A stretch of 64,000 bases of DNA from Thermoanaerobaculia bacterium. Its GTDB lineage: Bacteria; Acidobacteriota; Thermoanaerobaculia; Multivoradales; Multivoraceae. Shown here one piece after another: positions 1 through 37,426 of the stretch. Location of the stretch: assembly GCA_963664405.1 (NCBI GenBank), contig OY761158.1, positions 5,984,001 through 6,048,000 on the forward strand, given 5' to 3'. Positions within the stretch are counted from its first letter, which is position 1. Every line of letters starts with the position of its first letter. The position numbers were made by a program, and so were the translations under genes. The notes beneath the pieces were generated by a model. That model had not been told where the DNA came from. It saw nothing but the letters and a program-made list of their open reading frames with translations, and searched no databases.

Positions 1-572
1 GGCTGAGCCCATTCGGCTTCGAGACCACGCGCGATAAGCGCATCGAGCTCACGACCGAGGTCAATGCCGAGCGCCTCTTCGAACCCTTCGACATTCAGGA
101 GGGGATAGTGGTACCCCCTGGACGCTACGAATTCCATCGCTGGGAGCTCGACGGCCGCACCCGTTCGAGTGCCCCTCTCTCCGTGCGCGGGAAGGTGTCG
201 GTGGGCGAGTTCTTCGATGGCGACAGGCTGAGCACGAGCGCCTCGCTCGACGCCCGGGTCTCACGCTTCTTCGGTGCCCGCACCAGCTTCAACTACGACG
301 ACGTCGATCTTCCGGGAGGAGACTTCATTACTCGCCTCTTTAGCCAGCGTCTGGACTTCGCCTTCACCCCCGACCTCGTCGCCAACGCTTTCGCTCAGTT
401 CAACGAAGCGGCAGAGCTGGTGTCGATGAATCTGCGCTTCAACTGGATCTATCGGCCCGGGGCCGACCTCTTCGTGGTCTACAACGAGAACTGGAACGCT
501 CCGACCTTCAGCTCCCGCGACACCCTTGGGCGCACACTCACCGTCAAGTTCACGTATCTGTGGCAGAGCTAG
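1..572 (+). CDS. 3' part of a probable outer-membrane beta-barrel protein (DUF5916/CBM9-associated type), runs off window
   Basis: Alternating aromatic beta-strand pattern, C-terminus NLRFNWIYRPGADLFVVYNE...VKFTYLWQS; TAG 570-572 lies in the CTAG that starts the repeat. Confidence 0.55.
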   Translation, partial: LSPFGFETTRDKRIELTTEVNAERLFEPFDIQEGIVVPPGRYEFHRWELDGRTRSSAPLSVRGKVSVGEFFDGDRLSTSASLDARVSRFFGARTSFNYDDVDLPGGDFITRLFSQRLDFAFTPDLVANAFAQFNEAAELVSMNLRFNWIYRPGADLFVVYNENWNAPTFSSRDTLGRTLTVKFTYLWQS

Positions 573-3743: not shown

Positions 3744-5107
3744 GGATCCGTCCCGAATGCTGTGGAAATTGAGAATGGCGTAACCTCCTAGTGGTCAAAC
3801 ACATCGCCGGTTAGGGCGAACGGAGGATTACGCCATGGTGGAGAATATCAACGAGGAAGGGGAAGCTGCACGCTTCCGTCAGGACATTCGTTCGTTGTTA
3901 CGCGAGCGTGTTCGTGCGGCGATCGAGATCACACTCGAGGAAGAGCTGTCCGAGGCGCTGGGCTGCAGCGCCTACGAGCGTTCAGGCGAGCGTGCGGGCT
4001 ATCGCAACGGCAAGCAGCGTCGTCTGATCACGACGGCGTGTGGGTCGAAGGAACTGGACATTCCACGAGGACGGCTAGTCGGCGAGGATGGGGCCAGCGT
4101 AGAGTTTCGCAGTGCGATCGTGCCGCGTTACGCTCGTCGTACGCAGGAGGTCGATGACGCGATCCTGGGTGCGTATCTGGCTGGCGCTAACAGCCGCCGG
4201 ATCAAGAAGGCATTGGCTCCGCTGCTGGGTGAGGAGCACCTGTCCAAGAGCGCAGTTTCGCGTGTGGTGTCTCGGCTGAAGGAGCTTTTTGCTCGCTGGA
4301 GTGAGCGCGATCTGTCGGAGGAGTCCTACGTGCTTCTGTTTCTCGATGGCTTTCACCTGAAGGTCCGCTTGGCCCGTCGAGTGGTCTCGGTACCGGTGCT
4401 GGTGGTGCTGGGTGTGACTCCGGACGGCACCAAGGTGCTGGTGGCCTTACGTTTAGCCGCGAGCGAGGCCGCCGAGCACTGGAAGTGGCTGATCGAGGAT
4501 CTGAAGGCCCGAGGTCTTCAGGCTCCGCGCTACCTGGTCACGGATGGCCACAAAGGGCTGGCCGCGGCGCTGAAGGCTTGGCCTGAGGTCAAAGTCCAGC
4601 GCTGCGTCCAACACAAGTGGGAGAATCTGAAGAAACACTGCCCGGTGCACGCACACGACGAGCTGCGGCGTGACTGGCACTCGATCGTACGAGCCGAGGA
4701 CGCGGCACAGGCCCGCAAGGCCTACGCGGCGTTCGTCACCAAGTGGTCGCGACTAGTCCCGGCGGTGGCTCGCAGCCTTGAGGAGGCAGGGTTCCAGCTA
4801 CTGACCTTCTACGAGCTCCCCAAATCGCTGTGGAGTTCGGTGCGCACGACCAACGCTCTGGAGAACCTGAACCGCGAGTTTCGTCGCCGCACTAAAACCC
4901 AGGGCTCCTTTGCCACCGAGGCTGCCGGCGTCACGCTCCTCTGGGGGCTCGTCGCCTTCGGGCAGATACACCTGCGAAGGATTAACGGCTACCGGGCGCT
5001 TCAGCTCCTGCTCGAGGTTGAGAGGGCCGCGTAAACGGTAGGATTTAGCAAAAGACGACTCGGAGGACTACGCCTGAACCCATTTCCACAAAAAACGGGA
5101 CACATCC
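3744..5107 (+). mobile_element. IS256-family element, copy 1 (1364 bp)
   Basis: Ends GGATCCGTCCCG / CGGGACACATCC; 8-bp TSD TAAGAAGG (3736-3743, 5108-5115); same element as 40187-41550. Confidence 0.95.
3835..5034 (+). CDS. IS256-family transposase (399 aa)
   Basis: YRNG, LFLDG, VTDGHKGL, QRCVQHK and RTTNALENLNREFRRR motifs. Confidence 0.95.
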   Translation: MVENINEEGEAARFRQDIRSLLRERVRAAIEITLEEELSEALGCSAYERSGERAGYRNGKQRRLITTACGSKELDIPRGRLVGEDGASVEFRSAIVPRYARRTQEVDDAILGAYLAGANSRRIKKALAPLLGEEHLSKSAVSRVVSRLKELFARWSERDLSEESYVLLFLDGFHLKVRLARRVVSVPVLVVLGVTPDGTKVLVALRLAASEAAEHWKWLIEDLKARGLQAPRYLVTDGHKGLAAALKAWPEVKVQRCVQHKWENLKKHCPVHAHDELRRDWHSIVRAEDAAQARKAYAAFVTKWSRLVPAVARSLEEAGFQLLTFYELPKSLWSSVRTTNALENLNREFRRRTKTQGSFATEAAGVTLLWGLVAFGQIHLRRINGYRALQLLLEVERAA

Positions 5108-5465: not shown

Positions 5466-8450
5466 ATGCGGAAAATCGTCACCATGGGCATTGTGTTGCT
5501 ATTGAGCGTGTCGGCCAGTGTATTGGCCCAGGAAAACTCCACCTTGAGCGGGGTCGTGATCGACACCACCGGGGCCTTCATCCCCGGCGCCGAAGTCACG
5601 GCGGTCCAGGACGCCACCGGGATGGCCACAACACGGGTAACGGATGGAATCGGCAGGTACGAGTTCGCCCTGCAACCCGGGCTCTACACCCTCACAGCGG
5701 TGACGCCCGGTTTTCAAGCGGACATCCGCAACAATGTTGAATTGATGCCAGGCCAACCGGTCCAGATGAATTTCACCCTTGAGATCAGCGCGGTCGACAT
5801 GACTCTCGTCGTCGTCGGCAGCCGCGCGAAGCCGCGATCGGTCACCAAGTCGGCCGTGCCGGTCGATGTCATCCGGGCTGAGGACTTCACCCGCCAGGGC
5901 AGTACCGACCTGGCAAATCAGTTGCGGGCCGTCGTTCCCTCCTTCAGCGTGAGCATTCAGCCGATCAGCGACGCGGCGACCATCGTCCGGCCGGCGAACC
6001 TGCGCAACCTGGCGCCCGATCACACGCTGATCCTGGTCAACGGCAAGCGCCGTCACCGCGCGGCGGTCATCACTTGGCTCGGCAACGGTATCGCGGACGG
6101 CTCGCAGGGACCGGACCTCTCCGTCATTCCCTCGATTGCAATCCGGCAGGCCGAGGTGCTGCGCGACGGGGCGGCGGCGCAGTACGGCTCGGACGCCATC
6201 GCCGGCGTCATAAACTTCCAGCTCAAGGATTCCCGATCGGGCGGCAGCCTGGAGTTCCGCACGGGAGCCTACCGCAATGCGAACCCGGGCAGCCCGTCAA
6301 CGTGCGGGGCGGGCATCAGCGGTGACATCCAGCATTCCTGCAACGGGATCGGCGGACATGGGCAGGCGTTCACCTTCGCCGGGAATGTTGGGCTGCCGCT
6401 CGGCTCGGCTGGGTTCGTGAACCTCAGCATGGAGGCCGGCAGCGCCAACCCGACCAATCGCAGCATTCAGCGTGAGGATGCGCAGGCCATCATCATGGCT
6501 GGCAATACGAACCTGCGCAACCCGGCGCAGATCTGGGGAGCGCCCAAACTCGACGGCGACCTGAAGCTCTTCGGCAACTTCGGCTATCCGTTCGAGAACG
6601 GATTGCAGGTCTACGCCCACACCAACTTCGCGAAACGCACAGTAACCGGCGGCTTCTACTTCCGGAATCCGCATACCCGCGGCGGGGTCTTCCGGGGCAA
6701 CAGACTCCACCCCATCTCTCGCCTCAACGTATACGACAAAGACGGCAAGTTCACGAACTTCCCCGACCCCAAAGACCGTGACGCCATCGTATACGATGCA
6801 AACGGCCAAGTTGCACACCTCCCGGGGCAGGCCGGCATCCCGTCGCTCCTCGTGGGCGACCGGGTCTGGGCTGAGACCGACGTTCAGGAAGCTGGCGGCT
6901 GCGCCACGATTCCGGTCATCAACCACGTCCCCGATGCAGCCGCCCTGCAGCAGGTCGCGGCCGACCCGAACTGCTTCACACTCTACAGCCGGTTCCCCGG
7001 CGGTTTCACGCCGCAATTCGGCGGCGACCTCATCGATTATTCGGTGGTCAGCGGACTGCGCGGGTTCATGAGCAACGGCCTCATCTGGGACGCCAGCATC
7101 AACTTCGGCACCAGCAAGGTCGATCAGTTCATCTTCGATACGGTCAACGCGTCGGTCGGCTACGACACACCGACGTCGTTCGATCCCGGCATCTACCAGC
7201 AGGACGAACTCAACCTCAACTTCGACGTCTCCTACCAGGTCAACGATATCCTGCACGCCGCGGGGGGCACCGAGTGGCGCCAGGAAGAATTCACGATCGG
7301 CGCGGGCGGTCAACCGTCGTGGGAGATCGGGCCCTATGCCGCACAGGGCTTCAGTTCCGGTTCGAACGGCTTCAACGGCTACCGGGCCGACACGACGGCG
7401 GGCAGTTGGAGCCGCAGCAACGTTGCGGCCTACGGCGACCTCGAGTTCAGCGCCCCGGATGGCCAGTGGACGCTCGGCACGGCTCTCCGGCTCGAGAGAT
7501 TCAGTGACTTCGGCCTGACGACGAACGGCAAGGTCTCGGCGCGCGTCGAGTTGACCGACACGCTCGCGCTGCGCGGCGCAGTGAGCAGCGGGTTCCGCGC
7601 GCCGACCCCGGGACAGCAGAACGCGTTCAACGTGACGACCGCGTTCGTCGGCGGGCAGTTGGTCAACCAGGGCGTCGTCCCGTCCACATCCGCGGTGGCC
7701 GTCGCGAGAGGCGGCGAGGCGCTCCAGCCGGAAAAATCAATCAACTACAGCGGGGGAGCGGTCATCGAGCGGGGCCCGTTCACTTTCACCGTCGACTACT
7801 TCCGAATCGACATCGCCGATCGTGTCGCCCTGGCGCAGGAAATCAAACTGACGGAGCCAGAGATTCTGACGCTGCTCGCGGAAGGAATCCCCGAGGCGCG
7901 GAATTTTCCGGTGTTCCGGTTCTTCCTGAACGACTTCTCGACCACTACCCAGGGCATCGACCTGATTTCGACCCTGGTGGTCGGGCGCACAACATTCAGC
8001 GGGGTCTTCAACTACACGGACACGGCGCTCAAGAACGTCGAATCCTCCGTGATCGATGAATTCCGCATCAATACACTGGAACGGGGACTGCCGACGACCC
8101 GCTGGAACTTCACCGTCAACCATGACGCCGACCGGTGGAGCCTGATGGGCCGGGTAAACTACTACGGCTCATACTGGGACAGCGAGGATGGACGGAATGC
8201 GAAAGATGTGGGCTTCGCGACCGAGTCCTGGCTGTATCCGGCCTACGGCGGCAAGGCGCTGCTCGACGTCGAGCTCGGCATTCCATTCGGAGAGAATATC
8301 ACGCTGGCGGTCGGTGCTGAAAACCTGCTCAACACGTACCCCGACGTGAACATGTTCGGCGCCAATACGGTCGGCAATCAGTACGGCCAGTTCTCGCCGT
8401 TCGGCTTCAATGGCGCCTACTACTACACCCGTCTCGGCTATTCCTTCTGA
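5466..8450 (+). CDS. TonB-dependent receptor with N-terminal carboxypeptidase-regulatory-like domain
   Basis: Signal peptide, plug motifs LILVNGKRRH and EVLRDGAAAQYGSDAIAGVIN, C-terminal F; RBS AGGAG. Confidence 0.92.
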   Translation: MRKIVTMGIVLLLSVSASVLAQENSTLSGVVIDTTGAFIPGAEVTAVQDATGMATTRVTDGIGRYEFALQPGLYTLTAVTPGFQADIRNNVELMPGQPVQMNFTLEISAVDMTLVVVGSRAKPRSVTKSAVPVDVIRAEDFTRQGSTDLANQLRAVVPSFSVSIQPISDAATIVRPANLRNLAPDHTLILVNGKRRHRAAVITWLGNGIADGSQGPDLSVIPSIAIRQAEVLRDGAAAQYGSDAIAGVINFQLKDSRSGGSLEFRTGAYRNANPGSPSTCGAGISGDIQHSCNGIGGHGQAFTFAGNVGLPLGSAGFVNLSMEAGSANPTNRSIQREDAQAIIMAGNTNLRNPAQIWGAPKLDGDLKLFGNFGYPFENGLQVYAHTNFAKRTVTGGFYFRNPHTRGGVFRGNRLHPISRLNVYDKDGKFTNFPDPKDRDAIVYDANGQVAHLPGQAGIPSLLVGDRVWAETDVQEAGGCATIPVINHVPDAAALQQVAADPNCFTLYSRFPGGFTPQFGGDLIDYSVVSGLRGFMSNGLIWDASINFGTSKVDQFIFDTVNASVGYDTPTSFDPGIYQQDELNLNFDVSYQVNDILHAAGGTEWRQEEFTIGAGGQPSWEIGPYAAQGFSSGSNGFNGYRADTTAGSWSRSNVAAYGDLEFSAPDGQWTLGTALRLERFSDFGLTTNGKVSARVELTDTLALRGAVSSGFRAPTPGQQNAFNVTTAFVGGQLVNQGVVPSTSAVAVARGGEALQPEKSINYSGGAVIERGPFTFTVDYFRIDIADRVALAQEIKLTEPEILTLLAEGIPEARNFPVFRFFLNDFSTTTQGIDLISTLVVGRTTFSGVFNYTDTALKNVESSVIDEFRINTLERGLPTTRWNFTVNHDADRWSLMGRVNYYGSYWDSEDGRNAKDVGFATESWLYPAYGGKALLDVELGIPFGENITLAVGAENLLNTYPDVNMFGANTVGNQYGQFSPFGFNGAYYYTRLGYSF

Positions 8451-9425
8451 GCGGAGGATTGCCTGAAGATATGTTGGGGATTATGGCATTGTCACGTTAA
8501 GGAGAAGGATCTCGCAGAGTCCCGCGAGGCAGGAGGTTCGTCGTCGCGCGGATCTACCCGAGCGGGATTCTGCTAGACCTGGCTTGAGCGGAGGCCGCCA
8601 GGCAGGCGTTCGTGTATGGGGATCTCAGCGTCGTAGGCAGGCTGTGCTGCGCGCGATGGGCCACAGTGAGGGGATGGTGCGGCGTTTTTTCGGTGCCCAT
8701 AGTCTACGGCCCGGCGCCAGCTTCTGGTTTCGACAGCGGCAGTCGCCGACATCAAGTTCACCCGGCTCTCTGAGAACCGCTTCATTGTCAACCATCGCAA
8801 GCAGTCAATGCTCGGCGCCGAGGCTAAGGCGATGAAGACCCTGTACAGCGAGGGTTGCATCCATCTGCATCGCTGCTGGCTACTCGCACTTCGAACTTGT
8901 GACCCAAGACGTGCAAGAGCGCAGCCATGGCGGCCTGTGGGGTGGTGGCCGCGGTGCCTCTGGCACCGTTGATGTAAAGATGCGCAACGAGGCAGGCGAG
9001 GACCACATCGAGTGTGCCCCGCTGGCCGACCCAAAGAAGGTAGGGGTGGCCAAGAAGAAGCTGGCGAACGGCGAGTTGGGGTGATCGCAGCCGTGACCGG
9101 AGTGGCAGGGGGCGCGCCGCGAACTGAGGATTGGGCGCCGGGATAGTGCAGTGTCGCCTTGCGTATCGCTTTGGCCGCCGCCGCCGGCACGACGATCCAA
9201 CCGCGCTTGCCGTCCCGGTCCACGGCCTCTGTGTCCAGAATCACGACGCTCGCCGCGTCCGCCGACTTGTGCCAGGCGAGGGTTAGCCTGATACCCTGGT
9301 TACGCCTCACCGGCCTGGTTACGGGTGTTGCGCCTCACCGGGGGTGGTTGCAGGTTGCCCGAGCCCCTATCTGTCCGCGCGAATCGTCGCTTTGACCGGG
9401 CAGGGGTTCCCACGGCCAGCGAGCA

Positions 9426-9459
9426 TATCTTGATTGATAATTACCTTTATGCTTCATAC
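9426..9459 (+). other. lox-like recombination site L (hybrid; right arm overlaps the integrase ATG)
   Basis: TATCTTGATTGAT + spacer AATTACCT; 21 bp are the exact reverse complement of 13096-13116. Confidence 0.65.
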
Positions 9460-10414
9460 AACACCGACCGAACCCGCCGCCCTCGCCCGACGCCCCGACA
9501 CGGTGGGGCCGCTGGCCGGCGCCACGCCGACCACGCGCCGGCTCGCCGACGCCTCTATCAGCCTCAACACCCGACGGGCCTACCTCGGCGCGCTGCGGCG
9601 CTTGGACGCATGGCGCGGGGCCGCCCCGGTTGACGACGCCTCGCTGGCCGTCTACCTCGGCGAGCTCTTCGAGGCGGGCCGCGCGCCCGCCACCGCCGCC
9701 CTTGCCGTCGCCGCCGTCCGGTTTCGGGCCAAGCTCGCCGGCCAGCCGGACCCCGCCGGGGAAGCGACCGCCCGCGTGTTGGGCGGCTACCGTCGCACGG
9801 CCGCCGACCGGGGCCGGGGCCAGGCCGCCCCGCTGAGCGCGGACGGGCTCGCCGCGATTCTCGCCACCGCCGAACGTCCCCGCACCGACGGCCGGGGCGT
9901 CGAATCCCACACCACGGCGCAACGCCGGGGCCGACTCGACGCCGTGATCGCCTCGCTGTTGTTCATGGGCGGGTTGCGCCGCTCAGAAGTGAGCGCGCTT
10001 GAATGGCGTGACGTGTCGGACGCCCGCGACGGCGACGGCGTGCTTATCACCGTGCGGACCTCGAAAACGAATCAAGAGGGGGACGCCGCCGACGTGCGGT
10101 ATCTCAAAAACGGCGCGGCGAAAGCGATCCGCACCCTTCGCGCCGCCGCCGCCGCCGCCGCACCCACGGATCGGGTGATCGGGTTGTCCCCGCTACAGAT
10201 TCAGAGAAGGTTCACCGCCGCCGCCCGCGCCGCCGGCATCGAGGCGCGCTTGACGGCGCACAGTGGCCGGGTCGGGCTCGCGTCCGAACTGACGGCGCGC
10301 GGCGCGTCGACAACCGAAGTCATGCTGGCCGGCAACTGGAAAACCGCCCGCATGGTCGCTCACTACTCGGCCGGCGCGACCGCCGAACGCGGGGCCGTCC
10401 GAAAGTATCTGTAG
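9449..10414 (+). CDS. Cre-like tyrosine recombinase
   Basis: GLRRSEV, TVRTSKTNQ, AHSGRVG and GNWKTARMVAHY catalytic set with W in place of the second H, as in Cre. Confidence 0.88.
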   Translation: MLHTTPTEPAALARRPDTVGPLAGATPTTRRLADASISLNTRRAYLGALRRLDAWRGAAPVDDASLAVYLGELFEAGRAPATAALAVAAVRFRAKLAGQPDPAGEATARVLGGYRRTAADRGRGQAAPLSADGLAAILATAERPRTDGRGVESHTTAQRRGRLDAVIASLLFMGGLRRSEVSALEWRDVSDARDGDGVLITVRTSKTNQEGDAADVRYLKNGAAKAIRTLRAAAAAAAPTDRVIGLSPLQIQRRFTAAARAAGIEARLTAHSGRVGLASELTARGASTTEVMLAGNWKTARMVAHYSAGATAERGAVRKYL

Positions 10415-10427
10415 GGAGGGAGTCACG

Positions 10428-10673
10428 ATGTTCGACACGCACACCATCGCCCGCACGTTGACCGACGCGGGTATCGACCCGAAGCACGCCGACGCCATCA
10501 CCGACGCCGTGCGCCAAGCCGCCGAGCATAGCGAACACGTTACGCCAGAGCACCTTGATGCGGCCCTGGCCGCCATTGAAGCTCGCCTGACGTGGCGCTT
10601 CGCTGGCGCGATACTGGCGCAGACCATCGCCATGCTCGGTGGGATGGTCGCCATCCTGCGGTTGCTCGGCTGA
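10428..10673 (+). CDS. Small DUF1640/CCDC90-like protein with C-terminal TM helix
   Basis: MFDTH...L..AG.....A.AI..A start motif; strong RBS GGAGG. Confidence 0.65.
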   Translation: MFDTHTIARTLTDAGIDPKHADAITDAVRQAAEHSEHVTPEHLDAALAAIEARLTWRFAGAILAQTIAMLGGMVAILRLLG

Positions 10674-10734
10674 TCCTTGCAGGTCCGGACGGTGTGGTCG
10701 AAGTCAGGTGGCCACGCTCGACTAGACTCTCGCC

Positions 10735-10941
10735 ATGAACATTTCTCAGTTGCCCAAGAATGACCGCGTGACGCTCGTCAAGAAGGACGGGCAACGGTTC
10801 GAGGATCTGTCCGCGTCAGTTCAAACCGGTCTGATATTGACGTACAACCAGGAAATCCCGATTGAGGATGGCGACCAGTTTGAGCGACAACTGCCGAGCG
10901 GGATTGTTGACGTTTACACCGTGGTGGACTCTTGCGAATGA
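10735..10941 (+). pseudogene. Truncated hypothetical protein
   Basis: Protein-like 66 aa ending abruptly. Confidence 0.35.
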
Positions 10942-11052
10942 AACAGGAGAACCTCATAAAGTTTCAGGTTTCTGGACTGGCACTGGCGATGGCGATGGAG
11001 TGTGGGTGAGAATCGGGATCGATGGCAAGGTGTTGACCCTCCGGGCAGGCGG

Positions 11053-11317
11053 CACGGCTTGCCACTACTCGAGGCGATGGCGTGCGGTGTGCCGGTCATC
11101 ACGTCGAACACGTCGTCCATGCCCGAAGTGGTGGGTGGTGCCGCAATACTCGTCGATCCGCACGACGTCGATGAGATGGCTGCCGCGATCACCAGGGTGT
11201 TGTCCGACGAGGCGCTGCGCGACCGCCATGCGAGGCGAGGGCATCGCCCGCGCTGGACAGTTCTCGTGGAAAACGGCAGCGCGTCAGACGTTGAACGCGT
11301 ACGCGTCTCTCGGCTAG
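11053..11317 (+). pseudogene. GT4 glycosyltransferase C-terminal fragment
   Basis: GLPLLEAMACGVPVITSNTSSMPEVVG...FSWKTAA across a frameshift; no N-terminal part. Confidence 0.8.
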
Positions 11318-11388
11318 CGGTGATAGTTGCGTCGTATCGGGAACATCTGAATTTGTGACGGCTGGAACTCTAGGGACGGCACCGACAG

Positions 11389-11555
11389 CAAAACCACATC
11401 AACACCACATCAACACCACATCACTCAGGAATTAACGCCACGGTCACACCACGGTCACGCCACGGTCTCAGGAGGAAGTAACAGCGGCGGTCGGACGCGA
11501 CGAACAGGGCACGCAAAAGGACATTCAAAACCACATCACTCAGGAATTAACGCCA
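11389..11555 (+). repeat. Cluster of 11-bp tandem repeats and a ~27-bp direct repeat
   Basis: ACCACATCA x3 and CCACGGTC x3 at 11-bp period; ACCACATCACTCAGGAATTAACGCCA occurs twice. Confidence 0.7.
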
Positions 11556-11659
11556 GCAACGTCTCAAGCGGGCTGATCACGGTCATGTCACGCGCCGATT
11601 TTCCTGTTGGTGAACGCTACCCGGCGGGTTCAGTTGGGCAGTTGAAGAGCTGCCAGTTC

Positions 11660-12832
11660 TCAGGGAACGGGCGACGGCTTCTCGACGTATCTCATCTCGG
11701 GATAGTCGTAGTCAGCCGGCAAGGTGAGCCCTTGCTCGGGCATCACGCTCAAGAAGTTGTCGTGTGCGACCTTGATCGCGGTCTCCGGTTGGAGCCTCTC
11801 GAACAGCTCTTCGAATCTTCGGATCTCCTGCTTGTATCCTCCGAACCTACCGACGACGTCGGAGCCGACCATAAAATTGCCCGGGTACTTCTCGATTAGA
11901 GAGGCCCAGCCCTCCAGGTCGCTCAAGACATAGTCGGAGAACACGACCCAAGACAAGTCGATGTAAACGTGGTCCGCGTGCGCTTCCAGAATTGCGGCGA
12001 GAAGATCGGTAAGACCTTCGACCACGATACGCCTGCTGATACCACCATGGCAGAGGATGAATCTGGTATCTGCGAAAACGTTGAAGGTGTTGAGCAACTC
12101 CGGTAGATAGACGGGCTGCTTCGGTTCTCCATTCGGAGAGATCGCGGCAATGTTGTGATGGATGCTCACCGGAATGTCGAACTGCCCCGCAAAATCGAAG
12201 ATCCGGAACAAGGCTGGATGGTTGGCTCTTGGTCTGGTTCCGATGGTGAGGTTCGTGAGGTCATCGTGCCGAGACATGAGCTCTCCGATACCCTGAAATA
12301 GGCCGGGGAACTCCTTCATCCGTTTGACAATCATGTCGACGGCGCCAAGATCCGTAGTATCCACACCGGCAACGAAAGGATGCAGCCGCTCGAGTTGTGC
12401 TCCGGCTTCCCCACCGTGCGACAGCCTGTAGTCCTCAATCGCAAGGGCGACCGTGTAGTCCGTATCGCGCGCGGGGACCACTCTCGAACTGCTGTCGAGA
12501 TAGTAGGCGGGCCGAATCGGGTCGTTTTCCGACCACTTCTTCAGAAATGCCAATCCGCTGACCATGGCGTGCTGGACCCCAGCCCTGTCCATCGCCCAAA
12601 GCAGGGCTTCGATCCGCTTGCCGCGCTGGCCAACAGTAAGCGTGGCCTGCGGAGAGCTTGCCACCAACTCGCCGTTCTCCAGGAAGTCACCGTTCTGCAG
12701 GAAGTCGACCAGATGAACATGGGCGTCGTTGATAGGCAGCTCACGAGCCTCCTGGGGGGCGACGGGACTCCCTGGCACTAGTGCGGCGGCCAAAGCCGCA
12801 ACAGCTACTTCCACCCTTCCTAGTCTTCGCAT
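11660..12832 (-). CDS. Secreted amidohydrolase-family protein
   Basis: Signal peptide, DAHVH, GIGE, IHH, CHGG and GSD metal-binding motifs. Confidence 0.85.
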   Translation of the reverse strand: MRRLGRVEVAVAALAAALVPGSPVAPQEARELPINDAHVHLVDFLQNGDFLENGELVASSPQATLTVGQRGKRIEALLWAMDRAGVQHAMVSGLAFLKKWSENDPIRPAYYLDSSSRVVPARDTDYTVALAIEDYRLSHGGEAGAQLERLHPFVAGVDTTDLGAVDMIVKRMKEFPGLFQGIGELMSRHDDLTNLTIGTRPRANHPALFRIFDFAGQFDIPVSIHHNIAAISPNGEPKQPVYLPELLNTFNVFADTRFILCHGGISRRIVVEGLTDLLAAILEAHADHVYIDLSWVVFSDYVLSDLEGWASLIEKYPGNFMVGSDVVGRFGGYKQEIRRFEELFERLQPETAIKVAHDNFLSVMPEQGLTLPADYDYPEMRYVEKPSPVP

Positions 12833-13082
12833 AGCTTCTTCCGTCCGGGGTTGGTGGGATTCTACCGGGAGAACCGCTCGGGTACGCTAGAATCAATTAG
12901 ACCCTTTCCCAACAGGCAGGTGACCTATGAGGTTCCCGCACCGGGCGCAGGCTTTCCTGCGCTCTGGGCGGGCGGGAAAGATGGAGATCTATCTCGGAAA
13001 CCTACGCGCAGTCGATGACACCTCCGTGCCTCTCGAAGGGGAGATCTAACGCAAGGGCCGGACACGCTACGGAGCGACGAGC

Positions 13083-13116
13083 TATCTTGATTGATAGGTA
13101 ATTATCAATCAAGATA
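13083..13116. other. lox-like recombination site R, perfect 13-8-13 palindrome
   Basis: TATCTTGATTGAT-AGGTAATT-ATCAATCAAGATA. Confidence 0.75.
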
Positions 13117-13130
13117 GGCGGACGTGTCAA
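13101..13130 (-). promoter_or_regulatory. Sigma70-like promoter overlapping site R, pointing left
   Basis: Minus strand TTGACA (13130-13125), 18 nt, GATAAT (13106-13101). Confidence 0.6.
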
Positions 13131-13179
13131 GCGGTGATTTTGACTTTTAATAGGCTGGGCTGTCTTATAGGGTATTGCT

Positions 13180-13413
13180 ATGTCTACACCTACAGAACGG
13201 CGATACCGACGTGAGGCGCGCTACTCGAAACAACTGCGCGTGACAGTGGAACCGGCGACGGCGGCGGCACTGGAAGCGGAAGCGGACGCGGCGGGCGTGT
13301 CCGTCTCGGCGGTGATTCGTGACGCGGTTGCGCGCGGGTTGCCGCTGGTAAAAGACGCCCGGCGGAAACAGCGGCAACGCGACCGGCACGCGGCCGGCGC
13401 GGGTGAGGCGTGA
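13180..13413 (+). CDS. CopG/ribbon-helix-helix DNA-binding protein
   Basis: QLRVTV...L...A...GVSVSAVIRDAV pattern. Confidence 0.7.
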   Translation: MSTPTERRYRREARYSKQLRVTVEPATAAALEAEADAAGVSVSAVIRDAVARGLPLVKDARRKQRQRDRHAAGAGEA

Positions 13414-14050
13414 TCGCCTGGACCGACGTGGAAGCGGCGTTACAGGGGCGGCCGGGCTGGCGGCGCGTCGGGCGCGAATATCACGGGCCGTGTCCGGTGT
13501 CCGGCGCGGGCCGTGATTGTTGCTTCGCGTCGGAAGGGCGAGCGGGGGACGTGGCACTCGGGTGCCGGAAGTGCGGCGGGAACGGCGGGAAACTCGATAG
13601 CGAGTCGTTCCTGGCACACCTGGCCGCGCTGGTAGGCGAGACGGCGCGCCACGTGGCCGCACACGCGACGAACGACCGCGCGGCCATAGCAAAAAACCGT
13701 CCGCGCTGCCGGGGCGCGCCTGGCGGGCGTCTGAGCCCGTTGACGGCACACCCGGCGCGCGCTATGTGACGCGGCGCGGCGCGTGGCCGGCCGGTGAACG
13801 GTTCCCCGCGTCGGTGCGCTGGCTGCTTGCCTACATCGATCCGGGCCACGCGACGGATACCGAACTCTACTCGTGGGGAGCCGCGCATGGGCCGCTTTGG
13901 GATGCGCTCCGCAAGAAGGGGCAATTGCGGTTGAAAATGCCACCCTGGACCGGACGGCGCGGGTGCTTGAAGCATGGGCGGCGGCGGACCCAGGGACAAG
14001 CGATGAAGGGCTTGACGCCGAGGCAGTAAATCAACGCCATCCGAGCCGCG
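13410..14050 (+). pseudogene. Primase-like protein with N-terminal Zn-binding domain, frameshifted or truncated
   Basis: GREYHGPCPV...GCRKCG; GTGA overlap with the RHH gene; 3' limit approximate. Confidence 0.55.
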
Positions 14051-14159
14051 ATGACTCAAAAAGACCGGGAGTTTCTAGCTCGCTACGGTGGCTGGTTTGC
14101 GGATCGAGATGAGGTCGGATGAGAGAGGGTCTAAATCCGTGGGTTTTCATGTAACAGGG

Positions 14160-14379
14160 GACCGCTGTTGGTGCGAGGCAGGCTGCACAGCGCCATCGTT
14201 CGCGCCATAAAGCCTAGATCGGCGTCCGCTTCGCTGGCCGAAACAAGCTGGTTCACCTGGTCGAAGCGGGTGAAGTGGTGTAGCGCCTGGGGCGAGGCAT
14301 CGCGGATCGCCTTCACCGGCCCGTTCAAACCAGATACGACTTCCGCAACGGGAACCAAGCTGCCGCGTTGACGCTGCAT
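14160..14379 (-). pseudogene. repA: Second RepA-family gene, N-terminal fragment only
   Basis: DADLGFMARTMALCSLPRTN motif, then abrupt loss of similarity. Confidence 0.7.
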
Positions 14380-14452
14380 GCCTTTATTCTCCCATGTTCC
14401 ACTGCTATGTTCGCCGGTTGATCCCGTCTTCGTCACGGCTTCGGAACTCACG

Positions 14453-14719
14453 TCAAGCCGCGTCCTCCCGCTTCCGCGCCAGCGCCAGTTCGTAGGCCGC
14501 CTGAACGCGCATCCAGTGATCCGCATCTCCCCAACCAATGCGCTCCATCGCCAGCGCCAGCCGGGGAGAGATTCCGATATGGCCATTGAGCAGCCGTGAA
14601 AGCGTGTTCCTCGCCATGCCGAGACGCTGGGCGCACTCGGTCACGGTCCAGCCCACATCTTCATCCTCCAGGATGTCTCGGATCATTTCGCCGGGGTGCG
14701 GCGGTGCGTACATAGGCAT
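14453..14719 (-). CDS. higA: HigA-family antitoxin (HTH)
   Basis: PPHPGEMI...A..LGM.R..LS.LLNG..GIS...W...Q..Y.L. Confidence 0.9.
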   Translation of the reverse strand: MPMYAPPHPGEMIRDILEDEDVGWTVTECAQRLGMARNTLSRLLNGHIGISPRLALAMERIGWGDADHWMRVQAAYELALARKREDAA

Positions 14720-14730
14720 GGGCTCCCTCC

Positions 14731-15003
14731 TCAGTGGTAGTCGATCAAATCCACGTCCACCGCCTCGCCATCGGCAAAGCGAAAGACGATTCTCCAGTTC
14801 CCCGAGACGCGCACGCTCCAATCGCCGCGCCTGTCTCCCTGCAACCGATGCAGGCGATAGCCGGGCCGGTCCATCTCTGTCGGTGAAAACGCCACGTCCA
14901 AGTCAATCAGGATGCGTCGGATGCGCCGCACATGGGCCGGGTTCAGCCGCCGGGCATTGTCTTGCTCATACAAGCGCTTCAATCCCGCGTGCTTAATCCT
15001 CAT
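14731..15003 (-). CDS. higB: HigB/RelE-family toxin
   Basis: IKHAGLKRLY...PGYRLHRLQGDR...WSVRVSGNWRIVFRF...DLIDYH; toxin-first order. Confidence 0.9.
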   Translation of the reverse strand: MRIKHAGLKRLYEQDNARRLNPAHVRRIRRILIDLDVAFSPTEMDRPGYRLHRLQGDRRGDWSVRVSGNWRIVFRFADGEAVDVDLIDYH

Positions 15004-15376
15004 TCATAGGCCCGATTGCTCCATGATACATTACAGGGTTCACCTCGGTTACGGTCCATTCCTCCGCGTCATCGCGTCCCGGAGGCTTTCGCCTCCACCG
15101 CGCATCGGTAACGCTTGACGACCCCGACCCTGCGGCTCAGAGGCAATCGGCCCATGCTCCCACGTCCCCCAGACAAGAACCACAAGAGAACCCGCCAACC
15201 CTTCAAGGCTCAGACCAACTTGCCCGCTTCCGATCTGGTCCTTAGCGGGCGCTGGCCGATCTGACGCCCTATGATCGAGGGAGACGTCGCCACCCTGCGA
15301 ACCACCAAGGACCTCTTCCAGATGGAGCTCCACGCCTACACCATCACCCAGTTATTGAAGCGGAATCGTGCGGGGT

Positions 15377-15621
15377 ATGGCCAGAGAAGTGCTGTGGCGA
15401 CAGTTGTTTTGCCGAGGTTGCGGGGTGATGTTTTACATCTGCCGTTCCTGTTATCGGGGGGCAGGTCTACTGCGGGGATGAGTGCCGCCGCCGGATGCGG
15501 CGCAAACAGAGGCGGCGGGCCAACCGCCGCTACCAGCAGGACCCGGAGATTCGGGCCGATCATTGCCAACGCCAGCGGGAATACCGGGAACGGTGCCACT
15601 GGCGACGCTGGGATCTTTGCC
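15377..15621 (+). pseudogene. Third homologue of the IS21-associated Zn-finger ORF, frameshifted and cut by IS256
   Basis: Manual translation MAREVLWRQLFCRGCGVMFYICRSCYRG/QVYCGDECR...ANRRYQQ...H..RQREYRER, with an extra G in a G6 run. Confidence 0.7.
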
Positions 15622-16295
15622 GGCGATGTCCTACTGACTGTTGAAAAGTGACGGTGATCCGTCCCCGATGAGAGATCATCGGGGTGTCATCCAAAACACA
15701 AGGAGGATCACCGTCATGAGTAAGAGTGCCAGAAGGTCGACGAAGAAGAAAGCCGAAGACGAATCCAGCGAAGTTCGGTCTCGAGGTGGGCTGATGGAAG
15801 TCCTGCGAGACTCCCGACTCGCCCTGCGAGAGCTGGTATTGGAAGCGGGCCTTGGAGTGTTCCAGGAGCTGCTTGAGGAGGACCGGGAGCGGCTGTGTGG
15901 CCGTCGCCATGAGCGCTTTGCCGATCGTGAGGCCTACCGTCACGGGCACGACGCAGGGCGGCTGGTGATGGGCGGTCGCCAGGTGCGGATCCGCCGTCCT
16001 CGGGTGCGGAGCAAAGACGGGGTGGAGCTGCGCTTGCCCACGTGGGAGGTGTCAACGGCGCTTAAGAAGCGCGCGATCCCGGCTTTCTGACCGCGTTTCC
16101 TGCTGAGAGTCTCTTCAGCATCATCGTCGCGCGCGAGCGCGCGAGCAGCGTGGCAGGTGGGAGTATGGGGAGACCGGCGGGGGCGACTCCAAGCAAGGTG
16201 ACCGCCCACCGCCGGAAGGCCTGGGGTATGACGCCCCAGAAGAGGGAGTATTCCGCCTGCGGGTGGCGAAGTCCAGGCCGAAGGAGGCCTGGGCC

Positions 16296-16787
16296 GTGCG
16301 CCGCCGTCCCGATTGTCGCCGTTTCGTTTGCGATCGTTGCCGGCAAGCTGTCTACATTTGCTCTTGGTGCGATCGCGGCCATCGTTATTGCACGCCGGAG
16401 TGCCGGGATGAGGCTCGGCGCCACAGCCTTCGCGGGGCCGGGCGTCGCTATCAGCAGACGCCGCGAGGGCGCCGCTTGCATGCTCGTCGTCAGCAGGCCT
16501 ATCGAGATCGCAAGCAGCAAGGCTCAAAGAAAGTGACGCATCACAGTTGCCGCACCGGGGGCTGCCCTGCGACGGTGGCGTCATGGCCCACCGCGCCGCT
16601 TCCGTTGTTTTTGCAAGGCTTGTCCGTTGGAGGTCGGAACGAGGAGCTTCTCTGCAGGCTGTGCCGCCATCCTTGCGAGCCGATTGTCCGCCACGACTTC
16701 TTGCGATCGCGCCGAGTACGCCCGGTGCGCAGGCGGGCGCGGGATGATCTCTCCCGAGCTCGCCGCCGAGATCCGCCGTCTCTATGA
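16296..16787 (+). CDS. Cys-rich Zn-finger/basic accessory protein of IS21-like element A
   Basis: CDRC-x6-CSWCDRGHRYC..EC, RYQQ, VTHH, C-terminal CRLC; RBS AAGGAGG; homologous to 27804-28199. Confidence 0.7.
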   Translation: MRRRPDCRRFVCDRCRQAVYICSWCDRGHRYCTPECRDEARRHSLRGAGRRYQQTPRGRRLHARRQQAYRDRKQQGSKKVTHHSCRTGGCPATVASWPTAPLPLFLQGLSVGGRNEELLCRLCRHPCEPIVRHDFLRSRRVRPVRRRARDDLSRARRRDPPSL

Positions 16788-18243
16788 GTCGGAGGGCTGG
16801 CGGCGCAACACGATCGCCCGCCATCTGGGAATCCATCACTCGACGGTCACTCGAGTCCTTCGACGCGAAGGGCTGAGCCGGCCTCGATCGCCGCGACGAG
16901 CGTCCATGGTCGATCGCTTCGTCCCCTTCATCCAGGAAGTCTTTGAGCGCTACCCGGAGCTGCCGGCGAGCGTGCTCTACGAGATGGTCAAGAAGCGTGA
17001 CTATCCCGGTGGGGAGGATCACTTCCGCCACTGCATTGCCGAGCTCGGCCTGCGCCCCCGCAAGGCGCCTGAGGCTTTCTTTGTGCTCCGTACGCTTGCC
17101 GGCGAACAGGCCCAGGTGGACTGGGCTCACTTCGGCACCCGAAAGGTCGATGGCGGAGAGCGCCGTCTCTACGCCTTCGTCATGGTGCTGAGCTACTCGC
17201 GAGCTCTCTTTCTGCACTTCTTCTACGACGCTCGTCTGCCGAGCTTCCTGACCGGGCATGTCCTCGCCTTCTCCTTCTTTGAGGGTCTGGCCAAGATCCA
17301 CCTCTACGACAATCTGCGCAGCGCTGTGCTCGAGCGGCGCCGCAGCGCCATTCGCTTTCATCCACGGCTTCTCGAGCTCGCCGACTTCTACGGCTTTGAT
17401 CCAAGGCCCGTTGCTCCCAGACGAGGAAATGAAAAAGGTCGCGTCGAACGAGCCATTCGTTTTGTCAGAACTTCCTTCTTTCCGCTGCGTCGCACCTGGG
17501 ACAGAGAAGCGCTGAACCGGGACGCTCTGGAGTGGTGTCGCGACCGAGCGATGAAGCGCCCGTGGCCCCAGGACCGGCGTCGCACCGTCGAGCAGGCCTA
17601 TCTCGAGGAGCGCTCTCATCTCGTGAGCCTTCCGGCGCAGCCTTTCCCCTGCCACGAATGGGTCGAGCGGATCACGCGGCGCACTCCTTACCTGAGCTTC
17701 GATGCGAATCGCTACTCGATCCCGCATGATCGCATCGCCCGCTCGCTACAGATCGCCGCAGACCCGGAGCGTGTGCGCATCTTCGATCGCGAGCAGCTCA
17801 TCGCCGAGCACACAAGGTCCTGGGACAAGGGCCAGATCATCGAAGACCCCCGTCACCTAGAAGAGCTGGAACGACAGAAACGCGAGGCACGTACACAGCG
17901 CGGCCAGGACTACCTGCTGCGTACGGTGCCCCAGGCCGAAGAGCTCCTGCGGGAGCTGGCCCGACGGCAGAGACGACTCTCGAGTGCCGTCGCCAGACTC
18001 CTCGAGCTCCTTGCCGAGAGTGGACCCAGGGAGCTTGCAGTGGCGATCGACGAGGCCCTCGAAAAAGGATCCCCGCATCCCGAAGCGGTGCGACTCATCC
18101 TCGATCGTCGGCGCCACGAGCGGGGACTCCTACCCGCGCTGCCTGTCCAGCTCCCCGACGATCCCAGGATCCGGGAGCTCACGGTCACTCCCCATGCACT
18201 GGCCGACTACGACAACCCCAACGACGAGGAGGACGACGAATGA
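16744..18243 (+). CDS. istA: IS21-family transposase IstA
   Basis: HTH, GEQAQVDW, LYDN and EKGRVER (DDE triad). Confidence 0.93.
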   Translation: MISPELAAEIRRLYESEGWRRNTIARHLGIHHSTVTRVLRREGLSRPRSPRRASMVDRFVPFIQEVFERYPELPASVLYEMVKKRDYPGGEDHFRHCIAELGLRPRKAPEAFFVLRTLAGEQAQVDWAHFGTRKVDGGERRLYAFVMVLSYSRALFLHFFYDARLPSFLTGHVLAFSFFEGLAKIHLYDNLRSAVLERRRSAIRFHPRLLELADFYGFDPRPVAPRRGNEKGRVERAIRFVRTSFFPLRRTWDREALNRDALEWCRDRAMKRPWPQDRRRTVEQAYLEERSHLVSLPAQPFPCHEWVERITRRTPYLSFDANRYSIPHDRIARSLQIAADPERVRIFDREQLIAEHTRSWDKGQIIEDPRHLEELERQKREARTQRGQDYLLRTVPQAEELLRELARRQRRLSSAVARLLELLAESGPRELAVAIDEALEKGSPHPEAVRLILDRRRHERGLLPALPVQLPDDPRIRELTVTPHALADYDNPNDEEDDE

Positions 18244-19013
18244 ACAACACCGACCAAGAGCGTGCCACAGCCCTGAAACTCCATGGCCTCCTAGCCCACT
18301 GGGATGAGGTCGCCAACCAACCCTGGCTCCCCGACCTGCTCGACTGGGAAGAGCAGGAGCGAGCCCGTCGCGGACTGGAGCGACGCCTGGGTCGGGCCCG
18401 GCTCGGCACCTTCAAGCCGCTGGCCGACTTCGACTGGAATTGGCCCAAGAAGATCGACCGCGAGCAGATCGAAGATCTCTTTCGGCTCGAGTGGCTCGCC
18501 CGAGGGCACAACGCTGTCTTGATAGGGCCAAACGGCATCGGCAAGACGCTCATTGCCAAGAATCTCGCCCATCAAGCCGTACTACGTGGAGCCACCGCCC
18601 GATTCCTCACCGCCTCGGAGCTGCTCAACACCCTCGCCGAACAAGACTCCTCGACCAGCCTTCAGCGCAAGCTCGCGCTCTTTGCGCGCCCATCCCTGCT
18701 CTGCATTGACGAGCTCGGATATCTGTCCTACGACACGCGCCACGCCGATCTACTTTTCGAGGTCGTTTCCCGCAGGTACGAAAATAAGTCCCTTCTCATC
18801 ACCACAAACAAGTCCTTTGGAGAATGGGGAGAGGTCTTCCCCAACGCTACTACCGTCGTCACCATCGTCGATCGCCTCGTCCATCGCTGCGAGCTCGTCA
18901 ACATCGAGGGCGATTCCTATCGGCTCAAGGAGTCCAAGGAGCACGCCAAGAAGCGCGCTTCGGCCCGCCGAAGCGGCACTCGCCCTCGACGGCGCAGTGC
19001 GAAGACCTCGTGA
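18240..19013 (+). CDS. istB: IS21-family AAA+ helper IstB
   Basis: GPNGIGKT, LLCIDELGY, TTNK, DRLVH and GDSYR. Confidence 0.95.
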   Translation: MNNTDQERATALKLHGLLAHWDEVANQPWLPDLLDWEEQERARRGLERRLGRARLGTFKPLADFDWNWPKKIDREQIEDLFRLEWLARGHNAVLIGPNGIGKTLIAKNLAHQAVLRGATARFLTASELLNTLAEQDSSTSLQRKLALFARPSLLCIDELGYLSYDTRHADLLFEVVSRRYENKSLLITTNKSFGEWGEVFPNATTVVTIVDRLVHRCELVNIEGDSYRLKESKEHAKKRASARRSGTRPRRRSAKTS

Positions 19014-19363
19014 TCCGACAGGAGTATCGCGCCGAGCTCATCCGCCTCTACCTCGACGCTCCTAAAACCCCGCCTAGACCTCGGCGCCGAGACTGGGCCA
19101 TCGCCGACAAGCTCTATCAAGCCAACGTCCCCCTCGAAGAGCTTGCCCATGCCATTCGACTCGCCACCTTGCGACGGCGCCTCAGCACCGATCCGCTGCC
19201 GCAGATTCACTCACTTGCCTACTACCGCTCCGTACATCGAGCCCTGACCAACGACGAGCTCGACCCTCAATACGTCCGCTACATCCTCCTTCGGCACCGG
19301 TCCCTTCTCGAGGAGGATGAAACCAAAAGCGCCACTACACAGCCGGAATCCCGCACTTTATGA
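19010..19363 (+). CDS. Conserved accessory ORF downstream of istB (element A)
   Basis: GTGA overlap with istB; Y...L.RLY...P.TP, LPQIHSLAYY and Y..Y shared with 30469-30825. Confidence 0.72.
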   Translation: MIRQEYRAELIRLYLDAPKTPPRPRRRDWAIADKLYQANVPLEELAHAIRLATLRRRLSTDPLPQIHSLAYYRSVHRALTNDELDPQYVRYILLRHRSLLEEDETKSATTQPESRTL

Positions 19364-36989: not shown

Positions 36990-37142
36990 TTCGGGCCCAG
37001 ATGACGCAGTTTTGACATGGTGTTGACGGGCGGCCTCACGGACGGATCGGCGCGCGCCGAGGGCGACGTAGGCGAGGAAGGCCGCGTAGGATTTAGTGGT
37101 TTCGTCGGCGCGGCGGTCCCAGAGTCGCGGGGTGTCGGTCAT
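36990..37142 (-). pseudogene. Fragment resembling a phage terminase small-subunit N-terminus
   Basis: WDRRADET.KSYAAF..Y..LG..RS pattern. Confidence 0.4.
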
Positions 37143-37426
37143 TCGGCGTGCCTCTAGCTTGCTAGTAAACCACGGCTACAAATACTTTCTGACGGCCCCG
37201 CGTTCGGCGGTCGCGCCCGCCGAGTAGTGAGCGACCATGCGGGCGCTTCCCCTTCCCCGCTGACCGGGAATACGCGAGCGCCGATTCCAACCCGGCCAAC
37301 GTGCGATTCAGCCCGGATTGAAACCCCGCCGCGCCGCCCGATCCCCGGTGGCTATCGAAGCGCGGCCCGAACACCGCGCCGGCCACCTACCCCGCCGAGC
37401 CACAATCGTTGACCCCAAACCTCCTG

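Follow-up and report, generated by a model that had tools for sequence, protein, structure and literature searches.

Cre-type recombinases with palindromic 13-8-13 sites beside their gene are known and are being actively mined (excerpts of PMC10250229). Here we describe a locus of this kind in a stretch of 64,000 nucleotides from the chromosome of a Thermoanaerobaculia bacterium (assembly GCA_963664405.1, contig OY761158.1, positions 5,984,001 to 6,048,000; hereafter the window, in whose coordinates all positions are given), in which a recombinase gene lies between two lox-like sites of opposite orientation. We propose that a conservative inversion at the recombinase's own site probably uncoupled the gene from its promoter, and that this state is by now probably fixed.

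The locus shares with Cre/loxP of phage P1, Vika/vox, Nigri/nox, Panto/pox and the YR series, so far as these are set out in excerpts of PMC10250229, a two-domain fold and the residues R-E-K-H-R-W-Y, including the Trp that marks the Cre type. As in Cre-type systems, the target is a 34-bp palindrome of 13-8-13 form within 1 kb, the asymmetric spacer sets its orientation, and inverted sites lead to inversion. The locus differs in that its protein has only 19 to 22% identity to Cre and in that the native site shares sequence with the -10 and the start codon of the gene, which makes the right arm a degenerate stretch of coding sequence. Its partner is a palindrome of its own, kilobases distant, and the host is sponge-associated, with hundreds of near-identical copies in metagenomes; activity is a prediction here. 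Hin/hix of Salmonella resembles the locus in carrying its recombinase gene inside the segment that is inverted and in changing, by inversion, the gene that a promoter serves (excerpts of PMC5903667). Hin is a serine recombinase with the promoter in the segment, whereas here the promoter stands outside and the gene of a tyrosine recombinase would be connected or disconnected.

The FimB/FimE-fimS switches also combine tyrosine recombinases with short inverted repeats and turn expression on or off through promoter orientation. In switches of that type a few hundred base pairs with the promoter of a surface structure invert and the recombinase genes lie outside, whereas here 3.65 kb of genes would have inverted and the regulated gene is the recombinase. 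In FLP/FRT of the yeast 2-micron plasmid, the tyrosine recombinase gene lies between inverted 13-8-13 sites, as it does here; unlike in that system, our locus has no plasmid, no origin between the repeats and no long inverted repeats. In TnpI/IRS of Tn4430 and Tn5401 and in Tn3 res, the site overlaps the recombinase promoter, which allows autorepression, and these sites serve resolution in direct repeat on cointegrates; here, by contrast, the overlap reaches the start codon and the outcome would be inversion. We found in open full text, which leaves most subscription journals outside, no natural tyrosine recombinase that is uncoupled by inversion and whose site serves both as its leaderless promoter and as its start codon. 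Fusing a recombination site to a recombinase's promoter and start codon is a design used in synthetic circuits.

The recombinase and its paired sites

Four features carry the argument.

9449 to 10414, + strand: Cre-type tyrosine recombinase, 321 aa, intact frame (PF00589, E 1.1e-12)
9426 to 9459, + strand: left lox-like site, arm TATCTTGATTGAT, spacer AATTACCT, then TTATGCTTCATAC, which is the recombinase start
13083 to 13116, no strand assigned: right lox-like site, TATCTTGATTGAT AGGTAATT ATCAATCAAGATA, a perfect 13-8-13 palindrome
13130 to 13101, - strand: promoter TTGACA-18-GATAAT, matching at 11 of 12 positions, its -10 formed by arm end and spacer

The protein matches the Phage_integrase profile PF00589 with 48.5 bits against a cutoff of 27.1. 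A sequence search of the PDB returned 17 distinct sequences, all of Cre or of Tre, a recombinase engineered from it (best E 3.2e-4), with the alignment lying over the C-terminal HSxRVG...W...Y block; the HMMER alignment with Cre pairs HSGRVG with HSARVG, GNW with GGW and AHY with MNY. We aligned 28 sequences (that of the window, 21 translations of related loci and 6 hits of a protein search) and found R177, E180, K206, H271, R274, W297 and Y306 invariant in all 28. The diagnostic residues of the Cre type are R173, E176, K201, H289, R292, W315 and Y324 in Cre (excerpts of PMC10250229). An AlphaFold model built from the same alignment has a mean pLDDT of 82.2, and its Foldseek comparison with the PDB places Cre or Tre at ranks 1 to 30 (E 1.7e-11 to 6.9e-8, TM 0.63 to 0.74, 19 to 22% identity), followed by XerA (1.2e-7), the integron integrase IntI (3.9e-7) and lambda Int. 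To judge from sequence and predicted fold, the recombinase is of the Cre type; a first-pass annotation of the window, made from its letters alone, had called it Cre-like, and the invariant catalytic residues and the top fold matches bear this out.

A site with palindromic arms of 13 to 15 bp and an 8-bp spacer lies within 1 kb of the gene, with the left site overlapping the start codon; the perfect palindrome follows 2.7 kb after the recombinase stop. Both sites, and the opposition of their spacers, had been pointed out in the first-pass annotation and can be read directly in the sequence: the left spacer AATTACCT is the exact reverse complement of the right spacer AGGTAATT, and the left site is 96% identical over 24 nt to the reverse complement of the right one. 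TTATGCTTCATAC of the left site contains the recombinase ATG at 9449, the start of the 321-codon frame. In the register of the recombinase family (see below) the left site reads ATCTTGATTGATA-ATTACCTT-TATGCTTCATACA and has a degenerate right arm with 6 of 13 matches, and an inverted-repeat analysis of the right site gives complementary arms of 15 nt with 6 nt between them.

The two sites bound a segment of 3.65 kb that includes the recombinase, so that inverted sites, an enclosed segment and a recombinase are all present at the locus. The two sites do not make a compatible pair: in the register of the family the spacer is 8 nt on the left and 6 nt on the right, whereas in the register of the first-pass annotation both spacers have 8 nt and are exact complements, but the left site is then left without a right arm. 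A simple attL/attR integration of a circular element between the two sites is ruled out because the spacers are oppositely oriented.

We counted the arm in the window and in the genome, a single contig of 6,780,313 bases (a 6.78-Mb chromosome). Allowing up to 2 mismatches, a search of the window finds TATCTTGATTGAT 5 times, including 3 perfect copies; the mean over 100 shuffles was 0.39, and none of the shuffles reached 5. With up to 1 mismatch there are just 3 copies in the whole genome, all at this locus, and the reversed control pattern has none. These counts exclude a chance origin of the arm repeats.

Inverting the segment in silico yields the junctions that the first-pass annotation had described. 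The left junction becomes CGAGC(A)-arm-spacer-arm'-GCTCG, in which CGAGC, 5 nt standing outside both arms, would lengthen the rebuilt palindrome, and at the right junction the promoter is followed, after 7 nt, by the ATG. The accompanying statement that inversion repairs both ends was mistaken, since either orientation has one full palindrome and one hybrid site whose second arm is the 5' coding end of the recombinase.

The promoter beside the right site is the only sigma-70-like site called between 9000 and 13500 (mean of 0.7 in shuffles), and it points away from the recombinase. The same scan called no promoter-like site upstream of the ATG at 9449, where a -10 is kept and the conserved -35 is gone, in agreement with what had been said of the present state of the gene. 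The promoter is of the consensus type, stands outside the inverted segment and has the same geometry in relatives.

Promoter, site and gene in the relatives

Three features next to the sites are needed for the comparison with relatives.

9189 to 9425, + strand: U region, adjoining the left site on its left; a paralogous locus in the same chromosome lacks it
11660 to 12832, - strand: amidohydrolase-like gene, 390 aa (PF04909, E 1.5e-7)
13180 to 13413, + strand: ribbon-helix-helix (RHH) protein, 77 aa, CopG/NikA/TraJ-like (PF01402, E 3.1e-6; PF21983, 3.4e-4; NF010451, 1.8e-4)

A scan of species-representative genomes gave 11 recombinase loci. Among these, L044 is part of a 52-kb plasmid-like contig of a metagenome-assembled genome (MAG), together with genes for RepA_C, ParA, a PIN toxin and transposases. 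Its recombinase is 90% identical to that of the window and adjoins an RHH gene in divergent orientation; the RHH protein of the window has 85% amino acid identity with this neighbor. By blastn, window positions 9426 to 10414 correspond to L044 positions 5978 to 6969 on the plus strand, and 13097 to 13409 to 5997 to 5692 in reverse. Arm and spacer are the only part that the two blocks share, and there the homology switches strand; the window therefore differs from L044 by a reciprocal exchange at that point. Both products of such an exchange are present in the window.

In L044 the order is the RHH start, then caagtcaaaaacacccc, TTGACA, agcccccc, TATCATGATTGAT, AATTACCA, TT and ATG CTT CAT. This is an intact TTGACA-18-GATAAT-7-ATG and the same layout as the window inverted in silico, and L055, a second copy in the same MAG, has the same junction of promoter, site and gene. 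The divergent layout of recombinase and RHH genes with the site over the start codon, which the first-pass annotation had suggested seeking in homologues, is thus found in L044. An ATG placed 7 nt after the -10 suggests that the recombinase transcript is leaderless.

Two more relatives break near the same point. L043 is 90.5% identical to L044 from the last base of the spacer onward, with nothing matching upstream, and L026 is 83.5% identical to L013 from 2 nt before the ATG onward, again with nothing upstream. The breaks in the window, L043 and L026 indicate that the gene has been cut from its promoter at the predicted exchange point in three lineages.

We determined the register of the recombinase-proximal sites by anchoring each on its -10-like hexamer and scoring arm complementarity at spacings of 4 to 12 nt. 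A spacing of 8 nt was best in 7 of 8 sites, with these arm matches:

L015: 13/13
L013: 11/13
L044: 8/13
L007: 8/13
L045: 8/13
L046: 8/13
L012: 7/13
left site of the window: 6/13

The arm sequences vary between lineages yet stay inverted repeats, which argues for a genuine recombinase binding site as a feature of the family. In relatives, perfect or near-perfect sites stand at -22 to -68 from the start. In L013 the site is ATAACTCTCTATA ATTACACT TATGGTGAGTTAT; its left arm and spacer hold the -10 of TTGACA-18-TATAAT, the ATG and first codons lie in the right arm, and -10 and ATG are 7 nt apart.

Among 28 relatives' loci chosen for a long recombinase match, TTGAC(A/C/T)-16..19-(G/T/C)ATAAT occurs within 150 nt of the start in 5 (L044, L055, L013, L012 and L015; 23 are without it), and an A+T-rich 13-8-13 palindrome with up to 3 mismatches occurs in the same 150 nt in 4 (24 are without it). 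The promoter-in-site geometry reaches relatives of only about 39 to 41% identity. TTGACA-17/18-(G/T)ATAAT is kept directly ahead of the gene in relatives down to about 39% identity, which marks the order promoter, site, gene as old, and the retention of this geometry is our main argument that the promoter-connected state is the older, expression-competent design.

A more distant clade, at about 31 to 33% identity, mostly carries two sites per gene. In 9 of the 11 loci examined, a perfect or near-perfect site stands on each side of the gene, the two being 1.1 to 1.35 kb apart and of the form TTTxCTCGCGATA-N8-TATCGCGAGxAAA; these nine comprise 7 of the 9 long-match loci plus two copies in genome G334, while L083 has one site and L072 none. 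In 8 of these nine loci the spacers of the pair are exact reverse complements; in the ninth they agree at 7 of 8 nt. Six spacer types occur between loci. The right flank of the units is conserved and the left flank variable. No convincing sigma-70-like promoter was seen in L065 or L068, and L084 has one 9/12 match. We also considered an inversion polymorphism in this clade and rejected it, as all flank matches among the nine loci are left-to-left or right-to-right. The two-site units may be self-inverting cassettes or, alternatively, IS-like elements whose terminal inverted repeats are 34 bp long. They are multi-copy: L036 and L037 belong to G334, and L066 to L071 and L084 to G466, G428, G480, G448, G431 and G447.

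Frozen product or live switch

We hypothesize that the Cre-type recombinase came from a family of plasmid-like mobile elements that is very abundant in sponge-associated bacteria. Its native site would have been built into its expression signals, with left arm and spacer carrying the -10 and the right arm forming the first codons. A conservative reciprocal exchange with a second site of the same arm in opposite orientation would then have turned 3.65 kb, presumably by the action of this recombinase. The gene would now stand behind the promoter-less U region and be transcriptionally off, and the promoter, still beside the RHH gene, would face the amidohydrolase-like gene, which is now the first gene downstream of it.

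A frozen product of inversion seems to us likelier than a live switch. At the right site the ATA and TAT arm ends are 6 nt apart, against 8 nt in all 8 relatives' sites measured; a second site in genome G401 and the sites of the distant clade, as printed, also read 8 nt. In one contig from sponge run X9 (depth 11.4 of 16.7), an additional AG after 13096 brings the spacing back to 8 nt. The loss of 2 bp from a Cre-type spacer is expected to block exchange. The element also shows signs of decay: its primase-like gene is truncated, an IS21 element has inserted, and a pseudogene piece and the remnant of a second copy are present. The lost 2 bp of arm spacing and this decay lead us to think that the present state is fixed.

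A live, reversible autoregulatory switch, in which the recombinase, once expressed from the promoter, turns its own gene away, the promoter alternately serves the recombinase or the amidohydrolase-like gene and rare expression or a partner copy flips the segment back, seems unlikely to us. It would fit the intact recombinase frame, 97% identical to a metagenomic cluster of 200 members (a metagenomic protein search gave 1,868 proteins with E <= 1e-10 among 8,000 candidates, and the 120 listed are 87 to 97% identical), and the three perfect arms. It would also fit the natural occurrence of both layouts, in the window and in L044. Contig C11 of G401 moreover carries a second, inverted and promoter-bearing site 7.4 kb downstream of its recombinase, with an outer flank that has the same GTTACGCCTCA double repeat as the U region of the window, at the same distance from the same arm. 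Two-site loci with complementary spacers of six types, as found in 9 of 11 loci of the distant clade, point the same way. Yet all nine of these share one orientation to the conserved flank, and at our locus the spacings of 6 nt and 8 nt should, by the spacer rules of Cre, prevent exchange within an element that has decayed. Of the autoregulatory ON/OFF lox switch put forward in the first-pass annotation, the Cre-type protein, the lox-like sites and the promoter geometry (in L044) stand, and working reversibility seems unlikely, given the 6-nt right site and the decayed element.

Both orientations were looked for in sponge metagenomes, using Logan contigs of runs X9, X12, X13 and X1 at 90% likeness; contigs drop rare variants. 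No opposite-strand joint at 9446/13096 was present among the joints listed, a weak test in which a minority state is undetectable; this speaks, weakly, against a live switch.

Several observations also weigh against the frozen inversion that we favor. The missing flipped joint is one of them, and no chromosomal-depth contig of the four runs bridges either site. The divergent layout of recombinase and RHH genes occurs in one locus only, L044, and tblastn found no RHH gene in the other recombinase loci examined. The degenerate right arm of the left site, with its 6 of 13 matches to the arm, leaves three rather than four good arms for synapsis. The case for a 2-bp deletion consists of the register comparison and the one X9 contig. 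The paralogous locus (1284745 to 1285849 of the chromosome), in which blocks corresponding to 8721 to 9188 and 10429 to 10931 are collinear and 43 bp apart without a recombinase, resembles the present order and not the pre-inversion order. Finally, one metagenome contig (X13 only, depth 10) joins 11508 back to 9402, and because of this joint the order U-arm-spacer-recombinase may be native elsewhere. The direction of the event in this lineage is accordingly uncertain.

The last two observations bear on a further account, in which no inversion took place in the lineage: a compact mobile unit of recombinase, iteron-like repeats and U region landed near the palindrome of the RHH-primase genes, and the promoter-recombinase layout in G401 is a recombinant form. 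It is suggested by the paralogous locus, which lacks exactly 9189 to 10428, by recombinase homology with relatives that stops within 14 nt of the stop codon, and by the joints 10412 to 11373 and 11508 to 9402, which point to a unit of about 1.2 kb that is circular or tandem elsewhere. In X12, moreover, the recombinase has a depth far above that of the RHH gene and of single-copy DNA: the summed contig depth is about 5x10^5 for the recombinase, 6x10^4 for the RHH/primase start and 60 for the single-copy amidohydrolase region, which makes the recombinase far more multi-copy than its neighbors. We nonetheless consider this account quite improbable, since the opposite spacers preclude simple integration between the two sites, the promoter conserved before the gene to about 39% identity makes the layout old, the CGAGC flanks suit a former extended palindrome, and the joint 11508 to 9402 is one contig of one run.

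At the paralogous locus an arm-like sequence, CTTGATTGAT, lies about 45 nt downstream; the next 807 bp are related to a third locus, at 2.63 Mb, which is degenerate and has a recombinase fragment. Two modules, window positions 9462 to 10539 and 13158 to 13600, have an extremely high copy number in the communities of the four sponge runs.

The absence of bridging contigs of chromosomal depth, together with long contigs that stop at about 11596 and about 12951 to 12965, might also be taken as a sign of an assembly artefact or of chance similarity. This we regard as highly improbable: the shared stretch of 21 to 24 nt is not long enough to cause a misjoin in a closed assembly of 6.78 Mb, the arm occurs at these places only, and the contig breaks fall at a 116-bp indel variant and at repeats, not at the sites. 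The variant is an indel polymorphism next to the right site: one X12 contig (depth 18.6) skips the 116 bp at 12966 to 13081, directly left of it. In three runs, every long chromosomal contig stops at 12951 to 12965.

The frozen inversion is, in our view, the probable reading. L044 positions 5700 to 6300 were found in none of 300 further genomes of the order of G401, and window positions 11600 to 13082 in none of 40 relatives' genomes. A scan of viral contigs gave no relatives, and one of metagenome contigs gave two distant loci only.

The surrounding element and its family

The remaining features of the locus are these.

10428 to 10673, + strand: 81-aa gene inside the segment (phrog_17872)
10735 to 10941, + strand: 68-aa gene inside the segment (phrog_16834)
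11002 to 11358, + strand: C-terminal fragment of a group-1 glycosyltransferase, a pseudogene piece (PF00534 profile positions 106 to 169 of 172 only)
11380 to 11555, + strand: iteron-like repeats, with arrays of 11-bp period at 11380 to 11423 and 11438 to 11467
13410 to 13873, + strand: primase-like remnant (DUF7146 + Toprim family), residues 1 to 138 only of about 328, frameshift near 13688
15003 to 14731, - strand: HigB-like toxin (PF05015, E 6.3e-18)
14821 to 14453, - strand: HTH antitoxin (HTH_3)
16050 to 19375, + strand: IS21-family insertion (IstA/IstB), 3326 bp (PF22483, PF01695), which ends the readable right part of the element
37100 to 37248, - strand: second-copy remnant, the last ~24 codons of the recombinase and the start of the gene next to it in L044

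To judge from its sequence, the locus is a decaying mobile-element region in the chromosome. The U region contains two repeats of the GTTACGCCTCACC type (9299 to 9313 and 9327 to 9341). The 81-aa and 68-aa genes are phage-like; their copies at the paralogous locus have 96% and 86% amino acid identity, respectively, and in L043 the recombinase is followed by a relative of the 81-aa gene. Within the iteron-like region a 31-nt repeat occurs at 11410 to 11440 and 11525 to 11555; in other copies of the element, iteron-like repeats follow within 15 nt of the recombinase stop (the joint 10412 to 11373, and L043), and such repeats could be accessory-protein or arm-type binding sites. The amidohydrolase-like gene has single-copy depth in the metagenome contigs and was found in none of the 40 relatives' genomes. 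G+C content is 71% in the recombinase kilobase, 67% over the RHH gene and primase start, and 58 to 59% over 11 to 13 kb.

Full-length relatives of the primase-like remnant have 322 to 331 aa with PF13362 and PF23639 (DUF7146, Toprim_3), and the remnant has no Toprim domain; by tblastn, P0121 and P0125 align in two frames ending at 13825, and the fused variant P0141 aligns to 13873. This gene matters for a more speculative suggestion of the first-pass annotation, the flip-amplification of a small primase-encoding replicon in the manner of the 2-micron plasmid. The likeness is formal, a recombinase between inverted sites next to a primase-like gene, and several observations are at odds with the suggestion. 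The locus lies in a single-contig 6.78-Mb chromosome, and the primase-like gene is frameshifted and has lost the Toprim domain. A profile search of the window gave no Rep gene or replication origin between or beside the sites, and RepA_C and ParA of the plasmid-like relative are about 7 kb away and unrelated to the site pair. We hence consider a 2-micron-like device very improbable.

The toxin-antitoxin pair has PHROG matches to phrog_3066 and phrog_1381, and relatives of both genes lie about 3.5 kb from the recombinase of L036 in G334. Six more full-length copies of the IS21-family insertion (at least 94.9% identity), as well as partial ones, are present in the genome, which is very IS-rich: another IS21-like family has more than 20 copies, an IS256/Mutator-family transposase lies at 3835 to 5034 and a truncated Mutator transposase at 19383 to 20093. 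A 170-bp repeat at 8495 to 8666 has at least 6 other genome copies at 85 to 93% identity and may stem from a small non-autonomous element or from the end of an IS. Rfam gave no matches for 8000 to 16500 at E up to 0.1. A frame of 245 aa at 8573 to 9310 was rejected as a gene, having no Pfam, NCBIfam or PHROGs match and equal G+C at all codon positions; it is probably no gene.

Some relatives have altered surroundings. In L043 (positions 5968 to 7773, a Terriglobia MAG) the stop codon of the recombinase is lost and the gene continues as a 590-aa frame into iteron-like sequence, and about 3 kb are inserted between the recombinase and its usual downstream neighbor. In L045/L046, from a Candidatus Aldehydirespirator MAG, a recombinase of 70% identity precedes an array of tandem repeats (period about 73 to 75 bp) that extends over more than 5.8 kb, from 7038 to the end of the locus, and may be CRISPR-like or a satellite.

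One could go further and see in these loci an undescribed, widespread class of self-limiting "flip-off" cassettes, in which the site is leaderless promoter and start codon at once and expression inverts the gene and hands its promoter to cargo. The units of the distant clade would be the minimal form, autonomous toggles or a new mobile element at high copy in sponge symbionts. We offer this as a speculation that is doubtful at present.

Should the enzyme be active, new pairs of Cre-type recombinase and site could be read from the window, from L044, L013, L015 and L009, and from the distant two-site clade. Distinct pairs of recombinase and site are raw material sought for orthogonal genome engineering (excerpts of PMC10250229). 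A site fused to promoter and start codon would provide built-in autoregulation, with silencing in one step after the recombinase has acted. The very high copy number of the gene in sponge metagenomes suggests that this recombinase has a role in shaping genome rearrangement in the symbionts.

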